Of a stretch of DNA of 64,000 bases, positions 22,886 to 28,862 are shown piece by piece (position 1 is the stretch's first letter; each line of letters starts with the position of its first letter). Source of the DNA: an uncultured Alphaproteobacteria bacterium (GTDB lineage Bacteria > Pseudomonadota > Alphaproteobacteria > Rs-D84); assembly GCA_951801825.1 (NCBI GenBank), contig CATOOF010000002.1:100441-164440 (forward strand). Direction: 5' to 3'. A model generated the notes under the pieces. The model was not told where the DNA came from and made no database searches. It was given only the letters and a program-made list of their open reading frames with translations. Position numbers and translations under genes: made by a program.

Positions 22886-23758
22886 ATGAATGAAAATATT
22901 GTAAATGATACAGAAGTACAAAATGTGGAAATGACCGCGGGGGAAATGTTGCGCAACGCCCGTACGACGGGGCGTCGCAAGCGTGAGATTCCGACAATTG
23001 CCAAACAATTATGCATCCGGGAAGAGTTTTTGCAGGCGTTAGAGGACGGTGATTATTCAGTAATCCCCGAACCTGTTTATATTTTGGGATTTGCCAGAAA
23101 TTATGCGATGGAGCTGGGGCTGAATCCGGATGATGTTGTCGCCAAGATAAAGCGTGAGATGGGGATGGCAACAGAATGTGCGGCGGATGCCGATGCGGCC
23201 GATTCTGGCTCTTGTGGTACGGGCGGGGTTCCCGGCGGGATTGTTGCGCGTGCGGCGATATTTGTACGCAAAAAATGGAAATGGTTTGCCGGTGCGGCGG
23301 TATTGCTGGGGGCGCTGGTTGTCGGGATTGTTATACTGGTTGCGTCGGGTCGCGGCGATGATGCGGCACAAACCCCGGATGTAGTGGTGGCGGAAACAGT
23401 TCAGGCCGTATCGGAGCCGGCGTATTCCAAAACCGTACGTGAGCGTTTTGGAACAGAAAACAGGGCGAATGCGCGTGTTATCCTGCAGGCGGCCCAGGAA
23501 TCGTGGGTAAAGGTTGAAGATGCACGCGGCAATACTGTTTTCAGTCGCGTTCTGGTCCCGGGCGATGTTTATTATGTTCCGGCGGCGGCGAATCACAAGG
23601 CAACGTTTGGCAACGCCGGTGGCATTGATATCTGGGTTGATGGTGTTGCGGCGGAAAAGGCCGGGCCTGCACATACAAGACAGTCGGGCATATCGTTGAA
23701 TCCGGAAAGCTTAAAGCCGGCGGCAAAATCTGCGCCGGATACAGAAACGGCGGAATAA
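22886..23758 (+). CDS. rodZ: RodZ-like protein (HTH, TM, DUF4115)
   Basis: GEMLRNAR...LEDGDY--IPEPVYILGFARNYA HTH, TM segment, SWVKVEDARG...FGNAGGI. Confidence 0.85.
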   Translation: MNENIVNDTEVQNVEMTAGEMLRNARTTGRRKREIPTIAKQLCIREEFLQALEDGDYSVIPEPVYILGFARNYAMELGLNPDDVVAKIKREMGMATECAADADAADSGSCGTGGVPGGIVARAAIFVRKKWKWFAGAAVLLGALVVGIVILVASGRGDDAAQTPDVVVAETVQAVSEPAYSKTVRERFGTENRANARVILQAAQESWVKVEDARGNTVFSRVLVPGDVYYVPAAANHKATFGNAGGIDIWVDGVAAEKAGPAHTRQSGISLNPESLKPAAKSAPDTETAE

Positions 23759-23890
23759 AACAATCCCCCAATATGGGGGATTTTTAATTAACCCCCAAAA
23801 TGTGCCGTGAATAAATACCGGCTGTTGTATATAAGAAAAATTGCCCTTTTCCTTGAAATTTTGAATATTTCAGCTATATTTTAAGATACT

Positions 23891-26767
23891 ATGGCAAATA
23901 TGATAAAAATTCGCGGCGCACGCGAAAATAATCTTAAAAATATTGATTTAGACCTGCCAAAAAACAAACTGGTGGTCTTTACGGGCGTTTCCGGGTCGGG
24001 GAAATCGTCGCTGGCGTTTAATACCATTTACGCAGAGGGCCAGCGCAGATATGTCGAATCCCTGTCTTCGTATGCGCGCCAGTTTTTGGATATGCAAAAA
24101 AAGCCAGATGTCGATTTAATAGAAGGCTTGGCGCCGGCGATATCAATTGAACAGAAAACCACATCAAAAAATCCGCGCTCTACCGTTGGAACGGTTACAG
24201 AAATTTATGATTATTTGCGATTGCTGTGGGCGCGTATCGGTGTGCCGCATTCGCCGGTGACGGGTTTGCCTATTAAGTCACAGTCAATATCTGAAATGGT
24301 TGACTGGACCATGAAAATACCAGCCGGGACCAAGATATTTGTTATGGCGCCGCTGGTTCGTGACCGCAAGGGCGAATATCGCAAGGAAATTGCGTTTCTT
24401 ATAAAGCAGGGCTATAGTCGGGCAATTATTGATGGCGAACTATATGACTTATCCGCGGTGGGGCCTCTGGACAAGAATAAAAAGCATAATATTCTGGTAA
24501 TTGTAGACCGCCTGGTCATGCCATCCGCATCAGATGACACTGAAGAGTTTCGTTCGCGCCTGTATGCCTCGTTTGAGGGGGCGTTGCGTCTGGTTCCGGG
24601 ATCTGTGCTGGTGCGGCGCCTGGATACCGACGAAGACATTTTATATTCTCAAAATTACGCATGTCCGGTCAGTGGTTTTACCGTACCCAAGATAGAACCG
24701 CGCCTGTTTTCGTTTAACGCGCCCGCGGGTGCGTGTCAGTCGTGCGACGGACTGGGGGTACAGCTGAAAATGTCGCCAGATTTGGTAATTCCGGATCCGT
24801 CTAAATCTATTTTGGATGGTGCAATTGCGCCGTGGTCGCGCGGTGGCATGCTTAGCCAGTTTGAGCATCTGCTGAGTGCTTTGCATAAAAAATACAAGAT
24901 TCCGATGACGCGGCCATGGCATGCATTGACCGAGGAGCAAAAAGACCTGATTCTGTACGGCAGCGGGGATGAGCCGATAAAAATAAACTGGAACGGTTTC
25001 GTGTATGAAAAGCCTTATGAGGGCGTTATTCCAAATATTGAACGACGCTGGCGCGAATCGGATTCAGAGGCGATGCGTACCGAATTGGCAAAATATCAGT
25101 CAGAAAAGCCATGCCCGATGTGTCATGGAAAACGTTTGAACATTCAGGCACTGTGCGTAAAAATCAACGGTGCAGACATTATGGATGTATGCGAAATGTC
25201 CGTCGAAGACGCATTGCGCTGGTTTAATGATTTGCCAGGTCATCTGACACAAAAAGAAAATGATATCGGCCGCATTGTTCTGCGCGAAATTACCAGTCGT
25301 CTGCAGTTCTTAAAGAATGTCGGGCTGGGGTATCTGACAATGTCGCGCATGGCCGGAACACTGTCCGGTGGCGAGGCCCAGCGAATACGTCTGGCGTCGC
25401 AGATAGGCAGTGGGTTGTCGGGCGTATTATATGTTTTGGACGAGCCGTCCATCGGTCTGCATCAAAGCGATAACGACAAACTGTTGGAAACGCTGAAAAT
25501 GTTGCGTGACAAGGATAATACGGTAATTGTTGTAGAGCATGACGAGGATGCCATGCGTGCCGCTGATTATCTGGTGGATATCGGGCGTGCGGCGGGTGTC
25601 AACGGCGGACGCGTTGTTGCGTGCGGTACGCCGGCCCAGGTTATTAAAAATCCGGATTCCCTTACGGGGCAATACCTGTCGGGTAAAAAGAAGATAGATG
25701 TGCCGAAAAAACGGCGTACTGGGAACGGCGGTGTGATTTCCGTTCACGGTGCGCGCGGCCATAACCTAAAGAATATCGATGTGGAATTTCCGCTGGGGAA
25801 ATTTATTGCGTTGACGGGTGTGTCCGGGTCCGGAAAATCAACGCTGCTTTTGGGGACGCTGTATCCGGCGCTGATGCGTGCGCTGTATAACTCTAAGATG
25901 GAGACGGCGGCACACGATATTATTCGCGGAATGGAAAACGTGGACAAGGTTGTAGACATAGACCAGTCGCCAATCGGACGTACGCCGCGCAGTAATCCCG
26001 CGACATATACTGGGGTGTTCTCAAACATTCGTGATTTTTTTGCCGGTCTGCCAGAGGCTAAGACGCGCGGATATACATCCGGCCGATTCTCTTTTAACGT
26101 TAAGGGCGGCCGGTGCGAGGCCTGTCAGGGCGACGGCCAGATAAAGATAGAGATGAATTTCCTGGCAGATGTGTATGTAGAGTGTGACAAATGCCATGGC
26201 GCACGCTATAACGAGGAAACGCTGGCGGTAAAGTATAAGGGAAAATCGATTGCAGATGTGCTGAACATGACTGTAGACGAAGCATATCGGTTCTTTATAA
26301 ATGTTCCCCAGATTGCGCGAAAACTGGAGCTACTGAAACGGGTTGGTTTGGATTATATCAAACTGGGGCAGAGTTCGCTGGACCTGTCGGGCGGCGAGGC
26401 CCAACGTATAAAGCTGTCAAAGGAATTGGCGGCGCGTAGCACTGGGCAGACGCTTTATATCCTGGACGAGCCGACAACAGGTCTGCATTTCGAGGATATC
26501 AAGATGCTGTTGTCTGTTCTGCATGAATTGGTAGAGCAGGGAAATACAGTCATTGTAATTGAACATAATCTGGAGGTTATAAAAACCGCAGACTGGATAA
26601 TTGATTTGGGGCCGGCTGGCGGTGCTGGCGGTGGTCGTGTTATTGCCACTGGCACGCCCGAGCAAGTTGCCGCAACAGACGCGTCATCCACGGGACGGTA
26701 TTTGAAAAAGTATCTGCCCGCGCCGCGAACGGTTAAATCAAGAGTTTTAAAAAAGGAGAAAGCATAA
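23891..26767 (+). CDS. uvrA: Excinuclease ABC subunit A
   Basis: Two GxSGSGKS Walker A motifs, two LSGGEAQRI signatures, Zn-finger CxxC pairs. Confidence 0.98.
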
Positions 26768-27282
26768 TGTTTGGTTTTGGAAAAAAGAAAGAAACGGCTA
26801 CAAACGGTGCCATGCCGTCAATTGACGATGCAAAAATCCCCAGCGGGATGAAGGAAACAGCCGCACGTATGATGTCGGGTGAGTTTAACCTGAATGATAT
26901 GCTGGCGCAGTTAAAGCAGATTAAAAAAATTGGTAATTTCAGCGGCCTGCTTAAAATGGTGCCGGGCATGTCCGGGGCGGTGTCTGCAATGAAGGAAAAG
27001 ATAAAGGACGGCAGTGTTGATGCCCAGATAAAAATTTTGGAGGCCATGACGCCCGAAGAGCGCGCCAATCCGGAGAAAATTTTTGCAAATGCAAAAACGC
27101 GTATTGCTGAAACGGCCGGGTGCACCGTGCGTGATGTTGAACATATTATCAAACAGCATGCAAAGATGAAACAGCAGATGGCAATGATTCAGCGCATGGG
27201 CGGAATGGAGGCCGTAATGCAAAAAATGCAGGCGGCCCAGGGTGCTGGTGGTGTTCCTGGTGCGCCGATTGGTGTAAAATAA
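26767..27282 (+). CDS. Stand-alone SRP54/Ffh M-domain-like protein
   Basis: GEFNLNDMLAQLKQIKKIG...MVPGM finger loop, AMTPEERANP, RIAETAG; Met-rich; no NG GTPase domain; coupled to uvrA by a TAATG overlap. Confidence 0.8.
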   Translation: MFGFGKKKETATNGAMPSIDDAKIPSGMKETAARMMSGEFNLNDMLAQLKQIKKIGNFSGLLKMVPGMSGAVSAMKEKIKDGSVDAQIKILEAMTPEERANPEKIFANAKTRIAETAGCTVRDVEHIIKQHAKMKQQMAMIQRMGGMEAVMQKMQAAQGAGGVPGAPIGVK

Positions 27283-27283
27283 T

Positions 27284-27943
27284 ATGAAGATATTAAACAA
27301 AAAAATTGCGTCGAAAAAGTCATCTGTTGCCTGGCTGCAGCGCCAGGCGGCGGATCCGTATGTCGCCCGTGCCCAGCGTGACGGGTATCGCGCGCGCGCG
27401 GCATACAAATTGATAGAAATGAACGAAAAATTTCATTTCTTAAAAAATGGCCAGGTTGTTGTTGACCTGGGGGCGGCGCCGGGTTCATGGACACAGTATG
27501 TAACGCGTGAATTTCCGCGTAGCAAGGTTTTTGCTATGGACCTGTTAGAGATAAAGCCTATTCCCGGCGTAGAATTCTATCAGGGCGACTTTACAGAGGA
27601 TGCGGCGCTGGGGTGGCTGGTTGAAAAATTAAATCTGTCCGCAGATGCCGCGGAAAACGGTACGGTGGATGTTGTAATGTCCGATATGGCACCCAATACG
27701 GTGGGGCATAAAAAAACCGACCATATCAGACAAATGGTGTTGCTGGAATATGCGTTTGATTTTGCGTTGCGCGCACTGAAGCCTGGCGGAACGTTTGTTG
27801 CAAAATCTTTTACAGGTGGCACTACAAACGAACTGTTAAAGCAGATAAAGGACAATTTTGACAAGGTTTATCATATAAAACCGCCATCATCTCGCAAGGA
27901 TAGTGTTGAAATGTTTATTGTTGCAATGGGATTTCGTGGATGA
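27284..27943 (+). CDS. rlmE: 23S rRNA Um2552 methyltransferase
   Basis: YRARAAYKL, VDLGAAPGSW, SDMAPN, KPPSSRKDSVE (K-D-K-E tetrad). Confidence 0.95.
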   Translation: MKILNKKIASKKSSVAWLQRQAADPYVARAQRDGYRARAAYKLIEMNEKFHFLKNGQVVVDLGAAPGSWTQYVTREFPRSKVFAMDLLEIKPIPGVEFYQGDFTEDAALGWLVEKLNLSADAAENGTVDVVMSDMAPNTVGHKKTDHIRQMVLLEYAFDFALRALKPGGTFVAKSFTGGTTNELLKQIKDNFDKVYHIKPPSSRKDSVEMFIVAMGFRG

Positions 27944-28014
27944 TGTTCGGCCGCTTTTATAGCGGCCATTTTTTATTTCTTGTTTTATCAACCGGTAATG
28001 TATATAATATCAAA

Positions 28015-28228
28015 TGTCACAAAGTGTTTTTGTGATGGGGTGTGAAGACCTCTGCGTAAGCGTCGGAATATTAAGTCTGTGGTGTTTTGTATACATCGGA
28101 CTTGGCCTTTCGATGACAAGTAATCTCCTGGCCTTGGTCAGGAGGGTTGCGAATATATTGAATAAGCACACGGTTCTTACGATTGTCTTCAACCTCCTGA
28201 CCACCACAAAGCTGGTGGTTTATTCTTT
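28015..28228 (+). promoter_or_regulatory. Structured leader/attenuator RNA, copy E2
   Basis: Promoter TTGTTT (27980), 17 bp, TATAAT (28003); HP1 28017-28035, HP2 28037-28052, HP4 28125-28144, conserved loop 28148-28168; long-range pairs 28043-49/28185-91 and 28055-60/28176-81; antiterminator strand 28190-28202; terminator accacca/tggtggt with T-rich tail. Confidence 0.8.
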
Positions 28229-28253
28229 GAAAAAAAGTGGGGGATTGAGCAAT

Positions 28254-28862
28254 ATGGTAAAAAGATATTTGGTGGCATGCATAATGTTGGGCGGGGTTTT
28301 GCATTGTATACCGGCCGCGGCATTGGTCCAGGGCCAGGCATGCCCCACGACCGGTTTTGGCAGTTGGTATGTATATCAATGCAATTGTGCAAATGATGGG
28401 CGTCACTGGATGTGTAATAACAGCCCAGATTATTTAGAGGTCAACGGGCAAACAACATGTTATATAACCAGGGCTGATGGTGGTGCAGATGATGAAGCGA
28501 CCTGGATTTGCGCCAAAGAGCGTAACGGCAGTCCGTGTACCGTGTGTAAGTGTCCGCAATCAACCGGCTGGGAAGTGTATCCTGGGGATGAAACCAGTGT
28601 TGTAAAATATACGTATAATAATGTAAGTTCTTCCTATTTATGCGATTTTATATCAAGAAAAGAGGAATATGGCTGTAATGTCGGATATTATGAAGATGGG
28701 AGTAATTGGTGTGTTGATTGTCCGTCTTATGGCGGGATTTCCGGGACCAACGAAATTGGAACAACGGCTAAGGCTACATGCTATATCCCGCCCAATGTCA
28801 CTGGTAACGACGGGGCCGGAACATTTACCTATGTGGCGAAATGTAACTGGTCGGGTTCATAA
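28254..28862 (+). CDS. Cys-rich secreted/surface protein
   Basis: Signal peptide MVKRYLVAC..AAA, many Cys, CNVGYY and C-terminal CYIPP...D-AGTFTY--KC-W; start moved from 28014 to ATG 28254, downstream of the terminator. Confidence 0.8.
   Translation: MVKRYLVACIMLGGVLHCIPAAALVQGQACPTTGFGSWYVYQCNCANDGRHWMCNNSPDYLEVNGQTTCYITRADGGADDEATWICAKERNGSPCTVCKCPQSTGWEVYPGDETSVVKYTYNNVSSSYLCDFISRKEEYGCNVGYYEDGSNWCVDCPSYGGISGTNEIGTTAKATCYIPPNVTGNDGAGTFTYVAKCNWSGS

Follow-up and report, generated by a model that had tools for sequence, protein, structure and literature searches.

A stand-alone Ffh M domain in Candidatus Enterousia, a bacterial clade without detectable SRP GTPases or 4.5S RNA

Ffh, FtsY and the RNA of the signal recognition particle (SRP) are retained even in minimal Mycoplasma-type genomes. 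A list of universally conserved bacterial genes includes all three (bioRxiv 10.1101/2020.02.28.969238). The locus described here raises a simple question: what can the M domain of Ffh be doing in a cell from which every one of its partners has gone? We analyzed a 64,000-nucleotide stretch of DNA (the window, in whose coordinates positions are given below unless a genome or locus is named) from Candidatus Enterousia (Alphaproteobacteria, order and family Rs-D84; group genome paper PMC12306168), in which a gene at 26767-27282 encodes an Ffh M domain and nothing else of Ffh. The NG domain, FtsY and 4.5S RNA are absent together across the SRP-less clade to which this genome belongs. We found no publication on an M-only Ffh or on SRP loss in this bacterial group, and none with the SRP as its subject among the papers searched that mention Enterousia; SRP, Ffh and FtsY go unmentioned in the main genome paper (PMC12306168).

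The M domain and its RNA-binding segment

The gene and its parts are listed here, with the ratio of nonsynonymous to synonymous polymorphism (pN/pS) for three of them:

26767-27282 (+), M-domain gene, 171 amino acids plus stop (Pfam, TIGR00959, synteny)
26767-26790 (+), N-terminal octapeptide MFGFGKKK, near-invariant in 80 genus sequences
26791-26838 (+), variable polar linker, residues 9-24 (pN/pS 0.76)
26839-27210 (+), M-domain core, residues 25-148 (pN/pS 0.08)
26935-27024 (+), finger loop, about residues 57-86, inside the M-domain core
27040-27123 (+), remnant 4.5S-RNA-binding segment, residues 92-119 (EAMT...FANAKTRIAETAGC; alignment, charge)
27211-27279 (+), Met/Gly-rich C-terminal tail (pN/pS 0.38)

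The initial annotation had described a stand-alone M domain without an NG domain, with a degenerate SRP-RNA-binding motif and a retained finger loop and Met-rich groove, in an intact open reading frame (ORF) coupled between uvrA and rlmE behind the ribosome-binding site AAGGAG. Each of these points held up. The ORF begins with ATG, and its product matches Pfam PF02978 (SRP_SPB) end to end (profile positions 1-91 of 91, residues 39-138) with 85.1 bits against a gathering cut-off of 27; together with the helical fold and finger loop of an M domain, this places the protein in that family. The 428-position ffh model TIGR00959, by contrast, is matched at positions 315-427 only (90.5 bits, cut-off 473), and the fusion to an NG domain that characterizes bacterial Ffh, the TIGR00959 equivalog, is lacking. 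Since uvrA directly adjoins the ORF, no NG-encoding sequence lies upstream of it.

To describe the RNA-binding motif, we aligned the protein with the E. coli Ffh M domain (5aka_5) and with 16 Ffh proteins from its own order. Where the canonical motif is SMT..ER..P....(S/A/G)R(K/R).RIAxG(S/A)G, the 171-residue protein has AMT..ER..PEKIFANAKTRIAETAG: the Ser is replaced by Ala, the invariant Arg by Ala and the first Gly by Thr, and the residue before that Gly is now Glu. The 28-residue RNA-binding segment carries a mean net charge of -1.3 (-3 to -1) in 20 SRP-less proteins, compared with +4.6 (+3 to +6) in the 16 same-order Ffh proteins. The combination that marks a true Ffh, a conserved RNA-binding motif with a cognate 4.5S RNA, is thus not found here. 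In total, 18 diagnostic positions separate the SRP-less proteins from Ffh, including the RNA-binding Arg that has become Ala109 (R109A) and Glu115.

In contrast, the alignment shows that the finger loop and the Met-rich helices are retained, and in the groove-forming parts the Met and hydrophobic content is maintained or higher in SRP-less proteins than in Ffh. The finger loop is almost invariant among SRP-less proteins and variable in SRP-positive Ffh. The MGGM motif, in the core just upstream of the tail, keeps an invariant Gly (G145) in 36 of 36 aligned SRP-less and SRP-positive sequences. An AlphaFold2 model built from an alignment of 36 sequences has a mean predicted local distance difference test (pLDDT) score of 73, rising to 88-96 over residues 81-140, with helices at 42-56, 69-80, 83-93, 96-100, 107-117 and 121-143. 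The top Foldseek matches of the model are Ffh/SRP54 M domains (for example 5aka_5, with a template modeling score of 0.68 normalized to the target), and lower down the list is the mitoribosomal protein mL105 (6z1p_AT, 9g6k_Le, 9i05_AI). Judged from sequence, then, the RNA-binding surface has been lost and the hydrophobic groove preserved; the degenerate motif implies that the protein would act independently of RNA.

Absence of the other SRP components

The genome that contains the window (G000; 897 kb in 4 contigs, estimated to be 95.7% complete) has a single SRP_SPB match, which is the M-domain ORF, and neither PF00448 (SRP GTPase) nor PF02881 gives anything in it above cut-off. The best PF00448 match (19 bits, G000:C1:291738-291968) is not an SRP GTPase and belongs to Der/EngA, with its two GTPase domains and KH-like C-terminal domain. 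When 12 Ffh proteins belonging to other families of the order were used as tblastn queries, they matched the M domain alone and revealed no second ffh. Order-specific Ffh and FtsY profiles, run with hmmsearch --max against 12,103 stop-to-stop ORFs of at least 40 residues, again matched the M domain (143 bits) and nothing else, the next-best score being 12.9 bits; the FtsY profile reached at most 12.8 bits in these ORFs, and the FtsY receptor was not found. Rfam model RF00169 found no 4.5S RNA in the genome. The initial annotation had pictured the gene as an accessory decoy beside a full-length ffh and ffs elsewhere; with no other ffh, FtsY or 4.5S RNA detectable, that picture does not hold.

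The same absence extends over a large clade. We surveyed 200 genomes of the family, each at least 85% complete, with 169 Enterousia species. Every one of these species (169/169) has one SRP_SPB match, all of which, among the matches listed, lie within open frames of 150-231 residues, and none (0/169) has a detectable SRP GTPase (PF00448, either Ffh NG or FtsY). Five further genera (g12, g17, g19, g22 and g24, with nine genomes) are in the same SRP-less state. Ffh and FtsY are kept in nine other genera of the family and in each of the five further families sampled from the order, at about 440-500 residues for Ffh where the gene is intact and about 290-340 residues for FtsY. Two single-contig genomes, G064 (g19) and G091 (Enterousia), share the SRP-less state, which therefore cannot be put down to an assembly gap.

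For the RNA, RF00169 gave no match in any of 25 Enterousia genomes; the model is insensitive in this family, giving no match in the SRP-positive genome G054 and 26 bits in the SRP-positive genome G045. Because of this insensitivity we built an order-specific covariance model (R1) from nine 4.5S RNAs of the order, which scores the RNAs of G054 and G045 at 47-56 bits. R1 finds 4.5S RNA in 16 of 17 genomes of the family's SRP-positive genera, in none of 126 Enterousia genomes (G000 included) and in none of seven genomes of the other SRP-less genera.

These data bear on the explanation that the SRP is complete and that its other parts are merely too divergent, or unassembled, to be detected. Incomplete assembly of G000 and the failure of RF00169 in an SRP-positive relative speak for it. 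However, R1 separates 16/17 SRP-positive relatives from 0/133 SRP-less genomes, PF00448 scores 188-249 bits on intact genes of relatives (at least 104 bits on contig-truncated pieces) and at most 23 bits here (Der), the absence recurs in single-contig genomes, and the RNA-binding residues themselves are replaced. We regard this explanation as close to refuted, with very little probability left to it.

How far does such a protein occur elsewhere? We inspected 22 short M-domain proteins from a library of 1.84 billion proteins, and 21 of the 22 keep the canonical RNA motif. Several of those inspected begin on, or close to, the Met of the LGMGD hinge and therefore look like 5'-truncated fragments of Ffh. 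Only P0121 (the Enterousia cluster) and P0125 share the degenerate motif and an FG-KKK start. P0125 (L159:259-675, +) is a 138-residue stand-alone M domain, 51% identical, that begins with MGLFGKKK and has a degenerate RNA motif; its neighbors are uvrA upstream and rpsP downstream on the opposite strand. Since it comes from a different metagenome (ENA ERZ23486243), the SRP-less clade extends beyond the genera sampled.

Completeness estimates of Enterousia genomes are mostly 91-99%, and those of the single-contig genomes G091 and G064 are 97% and 91%. Should the set of marker genes include ffh and ftsY, the genuine lack of both may depress the estimates for Enterousia, and the two genes are unsafe as universal completeness markers for this group.

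Origin in place and selection after SRP loss

The surroundings of the gene, from which its origin can be read, are the following:

23762-23782, terminator-like hairpin that precedes the promoter candidate
23853-23880 (+), sigma-70-like promoter candidate TTGAAA-16-TATATT, a match to consensus only, upstream of uvrA
23891-26767 (+), uvrA, 958 amino acids, first gene of the operon (Pfam UvrA_DNA-bind, UvrA_inter, ABC_tran)
26753-26758 (+), Shine-Dalgarno sequence AAGGAG, 8 nt upstream of the M-domain ATG
27284-27943 (+), rlmE, FtsJ-type 23S rRNA methyltransferase, 219 amino acids, last gene of the operon (Pfam FtsJ, 198.7 bits)
27949-27967 (+), intrinsic-terminator-like hairpin (7 pairs, 6 of them G-C) and then a T run, 3' of rlmE

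The stop codon of uvrA (TAA, 26765-26767) shares one base with the M-domain ATG (TAATG), and the ATG of rlmE at 27284 follows the M-domain stop after a gap of 1 nt. In three other SRP-less loci inspected, the GGAG core lies at the same position, as AAGGAG in two and AGGAG in one. The three genes thus appear to form one operon, bracketed by a promoter-like site and a terminator-like hairpin.

In five SRP-positive genera of the family (g11, g14, g15, g20 and g23), a full-length ffh occupies this place between uvrA and rlmE; in a sixth (g16), ffh lies directly before rlmE, with uvrA outside the fetched stretch. Of 80 Enterousia loci, 77 have uvrA as the gene directly before the M gene, and 77 have rlmE after it in the same orientation. 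By position, then, the gene is orthologous to ffh, and the shared uvrA-rlmE site shows it to be a truncated ortholog left in place and not a paralog. The M-domain gene is what remains of the only ffh that this organism had. We also built a maximum-likelihood tree from the C-terminal half of uvrA together with rlmE, for 26 taxa spanning the genera (the remaining fetched loci were not included). It has a branch with 96% ultrafast-bootstrap support and all SRP-less taxa on the same side of it, and this topology fits a single loss of the SRP. The whole SRP cycle (Ffh NG, FtsY and 4.5S RNA) was lost in the ancestor that Enterousia shares with at least five sister genera.

In the alignment, the MFGFG start of the truncated protein falls on the LGMGD hinge, where the G domain ends, and the truncated and full-length forms of the gene both start with ATGTTTG, which makes an internal deletion that kept the original start plausible. 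A derivation of MFGFGKKK from the N-terminus of FtsY was considered (FtsY starts with MGIFSKI... in the same family and with MFGKLG... or MFGLGKK... in other families); the likeness covers too few residues and is too inconsistent to support a conclusion, and fusion of the Ffh start (MFD.LT.RL) to the LGMGD hinge by internal deletion would be an equally plausible origin of the octapeptide. Nor was a likeness of the motif to the signature of trigger factor (GFRPGHIP in the Tig of this genome) or to the start of SecA convincing. No second MFGFGKKK occurs in G000, where the motif is unique to the M-domain protein.

The spacing of the locus varies. Between the M gene and rlmE, the Enterousia loci (L037-L116) have 28 to 745 nt, with 250-700 nt inserted in many species. 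In g19 (L132:2468-3055, -; L133:2411-3049, -), a gene of about 200 codons with a signal-peptide-like start (MKIQKPLLFGLGAILL...) lies between uvrA and the M gene, and in g24 (L136) there is a gap of about 0.68 kb at that point. Some SRP-positive genera (L137, L138, L140) have a similar uvrA-ffh gap of about 0.65-0.8 kb.

To quantify selection, we calculated pN/pS from 80 coding sequences of the genus, in which synonymous sites are near saturation. Selection across relatives was a check that the initial annotation had singled out, and it comes out clearly: the ratio of 0.08 in the M core falls to 0.035 in the N-terminal octapeptide. The octapeptide codons vary freely at synonymous sites (Gly uses all four codons, Phe both), and therefore the constraint is on the protein and not on the nucleotides; sister SRP-less genera have the variants MFGLGKKK, MFNFGKKT and MAWFGRSKK. 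The linker is polar and 16-32 residues long across the genus, in a delimitation slightly different from the residues 9-24 listed above.

A decaying, functionless remnant of ffh, the least probable of the explanations that we considered, is refuted by the conservation of the gene, even though this is literally a 3' stump of ffh. The frame is intact in the 80 fetched genus loci and in all matches listed from the 169 species, the core has a pN/pS of 0.08, and it surpasses both adjacent genes, rlmE and uvrA, in conservation. The initial annotation had named a broken 3' half of the only ffh as the case that would count against it. Synteny bears out the 3' remnant of the only ffh; presence in 169/169 species, closed genomes and purifying selection rule out decay as well as an artefact of assembly or a frameshift.

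Mean identities reveal when the protein changed. Within Enterousia the M core is 92% identical, compared with 82% for rlmE and 88% for uvrA; among the SRP-positive genera of the family the corresponding values are 67%, 73% and 77%; and across the boundary between SRP-less and SRP-positive genomes they are 47%, 71% and 78%. This pattern reveals a burst of change at the transition, followed by a constraint tighter than before, and the M domain has been under very strong purifying selection ever since the SRP was lost.

Such a history could also mean that the M domain was recruited to a different job through a new, specific partner, so that binding signal sequences is no longer its function. The boundary value of 47% against 71-78% for the neighbors, a later constraint (92% in the genus) that exceeds that on canonical Ffh (67% among SRP-positive genera), the 18 diagnostic substitutions and a normally variable finger loop turned invariant all favor this possibility. 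It has difficulty, however, with the preservation of the Met-rich hydrophobic character and of all M-domain helices, and no candidate partner emerged: uvrA and rlmE are the ancestral neighbors of ffh. We consider it unlikely.

Two further genes flank the operon. RodZ (HTH_25 plus RodZ_C) is encoded just upstream, at 22886-23758 (+), and in E. coli RodZ serves as the model substrate for co-translational targeting by SecA (PMC5674894). Without an SRP, a cell could depend more heavily on this route. Directly 3' of the operon terminator, 28014-28862 (+) encodes a 282-residue protein that is rich in cysteine, has a hydrophobic N-terminal region and matches no Pfam family.

Candidate functions and known systems

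What, then, could the M domain do alone? Membrane-protein biogenesis is still needed in this cell: a crude count of hydrophobic spans gives about 109 proteins with at least two and about 48 with at least four; one or more such segments occur in about 325 crude ORFs. SRP-less and SRP-positive relatives both have YidC, SecA (with its zinc-finger tail), SecB and trigger factor. Our preferred reading, to which we give a probability of roughly 0.45, is that the protein is a groove-based binder of hydrophobic nascent segments that works near the ribosomal exit or membrane and needs neither GTP nor RNA. The Met-rich groove and finger loop would bind the signal-anchor or transmembrane segments of new proteins without either cofactor and would hand them to the retained YidC, SecYEG and SecA machinery. 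MFGFGKKK, on its flexible linker of 16-32 residues, could serve as a tether to the membrane, ribosome or translocon, and the protein as a whole might be the bacterial counterpart of the mitochondrial M-only protein MAP67/mL105.

A role at the ribosomal exit or membrane is the most attractive because there are three precedents for it. MAP67/mL105 is an M-only relative of Ffh located at the mitoribosome tunnel exit, where it contacts the insertase, in Tetrahymena, Toxoplasma and Polytomella (PMC7326499, PMC8321541, PMC9576764). In E. coli, the isolated M domain migrates together with ribosomes, and it selectively limits the expression of membrane proteins (PMC2921155). Finally, E. coli survives complete loss of the SRP when translation is slowed (PMC7844537, PMC8299109). 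A more specific version, doubtful as it stands, would make the orphan M domain an exit- or membrane-bound receptor (a 'bacterial mL105'), tethered by MFGFGKKK, that couples ribosomes making membrane proteins to YidC/SecYEG and so permits co-translational insertion without an SRP GTPase.

The second and third precedents can also be read in another way, with the M domain as a governor of translation that binds ribosomes exposing hydrophobic nascent chains and slows or limits their translation, a kinetic substitute for targeting. Both the selective inhibition by the isolated E. coli M domain (PMC2921155) and the survival of slowly translating E. coli without an SRP (PMC7844537, PMC8299109) agree with such a role. 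The E. coli effect was seen only under overexpression, however, and no sequence feature speaks for arrest, which makes this reading quite improbable.

Several observations weigh against binding of nascent segments near the exit or membrane, the reading that we prefer. The main ribosome dock of the SRP, the N domain on uL23/uL29, is gone, and contact between a bacterial M domain and the ribosome is made largely through rRNA and an SRP RNA scaffold that has been lost here. The isolated M domain of mammalian SRP54 was reportedly a weaker binder of signal sequences than the whole protein and gave no targeting (Zopf et al. 1993). The proposed tether is left disordered in the AlphaFold2 model (residues 1-23, pLDDT below 50). 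No extended Oxa1/YidC2-like ribosome-binding tail was found on YidC; compensation by such a tail was rejected, as the C-terminus of YidC is just as short in SRP-less relatives as in SRP-positive ones. The near-invariant finger loop and the 18 clade-specific substitutions could equally mean a new partner unrelated to targeting, and a soluble holdase or a wholly new function would suit the sequence data almost as well. A predicted complex of the M-domain protein with this genome's uL23 scored 0.00, which counts neither for nor against binding.

The holdase deserves separate mention. As a free cytosolic holdase or decoy, the M domain would bind signal peptides or hydrophobic segments post-translationally and off the ribosome, keeping precursors soluble for SecA/SecB or YidC. 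This fits a retained groove with a lost RNA face, the loss of the N-domain dock, the presence of SecB and SecA, and the many exported proteins encoded, as gauged from the ORFs with hydrophobic segments counted above. Yet SecB and trigger factor already cover holdase functions and are kept on both sides of the SRP boundary, and the invariant N-terminal motif and finger loop are left unexplained; we find it rather unlikely.

Whatever its exact task, the case is of general interest: a species-rich gut and rumen clade with genomes of 0.7-1.1 Mb has discarded the GTPase cycle and the RNA of the SRP and has guarded the M domain above the neighboring housekeeping genes. Enterousia shows what an M domain can do alone. 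It is instructive to compare this with known systems. With canonical Ffh, the protein shares the orthologous locus, the M-domain fold, the finger loop, the Met-rich groove and the C-terminal MGGM motif; it differs by the loss of about 300 NG residues and of its partners FtsY and 4.5S RNA, by the replacement of the RNA-binding Arg and of the first Gly of GxG, and by the reversed charge of the RNA-binding segment. The cpSRP54 of RNA-less plastids (reviewed in PMC8321541, with reference to Trager et al. 2012) and mitochondrial mtFfh are likewise natural SRP54 homologues that work without SRP RNA, but both have an NG domain and an FtsY-type receptor, so that GTP-driven targeting persists.

Life without the SRP GTPase cycle is also known from E. 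coli SRP-deletion suppressors (PMC7844537, PMC8299109) and from insect endosymbionts with tiny genomes, of which Carsonella and Portiera lack ffh and ftsY and the 357-kb Evansia keeps both (PMC4122945). In the SRP-less endosymbionts and the suppressors, however, ffh is lost entirely, whereas the Enterousia clade (gut bacteria with genomes of about 0.7-1.1 Mb, more than 169 species sampled) keeps the M domain selectively and under strong constraint.

The closest parallel is MAP67/mL105, which is also an alphaproteobacterial-type Ffh M domain without an NG domain or SRP RNA, resembles our model at the level of the fold, and is proposed to have arisen by internal deletion of the N and G domains, as may also be the case here. 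MAP67/mL105 is a eukaryotic, nucleus-encoded and imported protein, a constitutive component of the mitoribosome that is thought to derive from a duplicate coexisting with mtFfh; its C-terminal helix lies in the ribosomal tunnel beside uL23. The Enterousia protein is bacterial, lies in a bacterial operon and hence outside that mitochondrion-targeted family, is the ortholog itself truncated in place, and carries a distinct N-terminal octapeptide. By analogy, we would call it a functional analogue and evolutionary parallel of MAP67/mL105 and not a member of its family. As such it offers a natural bacterial model for a possible mitochondrial path from the SRP to an M-only protein, and if this holds true, Enterousia and its sister genera would be a living bacterial replay of the fate of the SRP in mitochondria.

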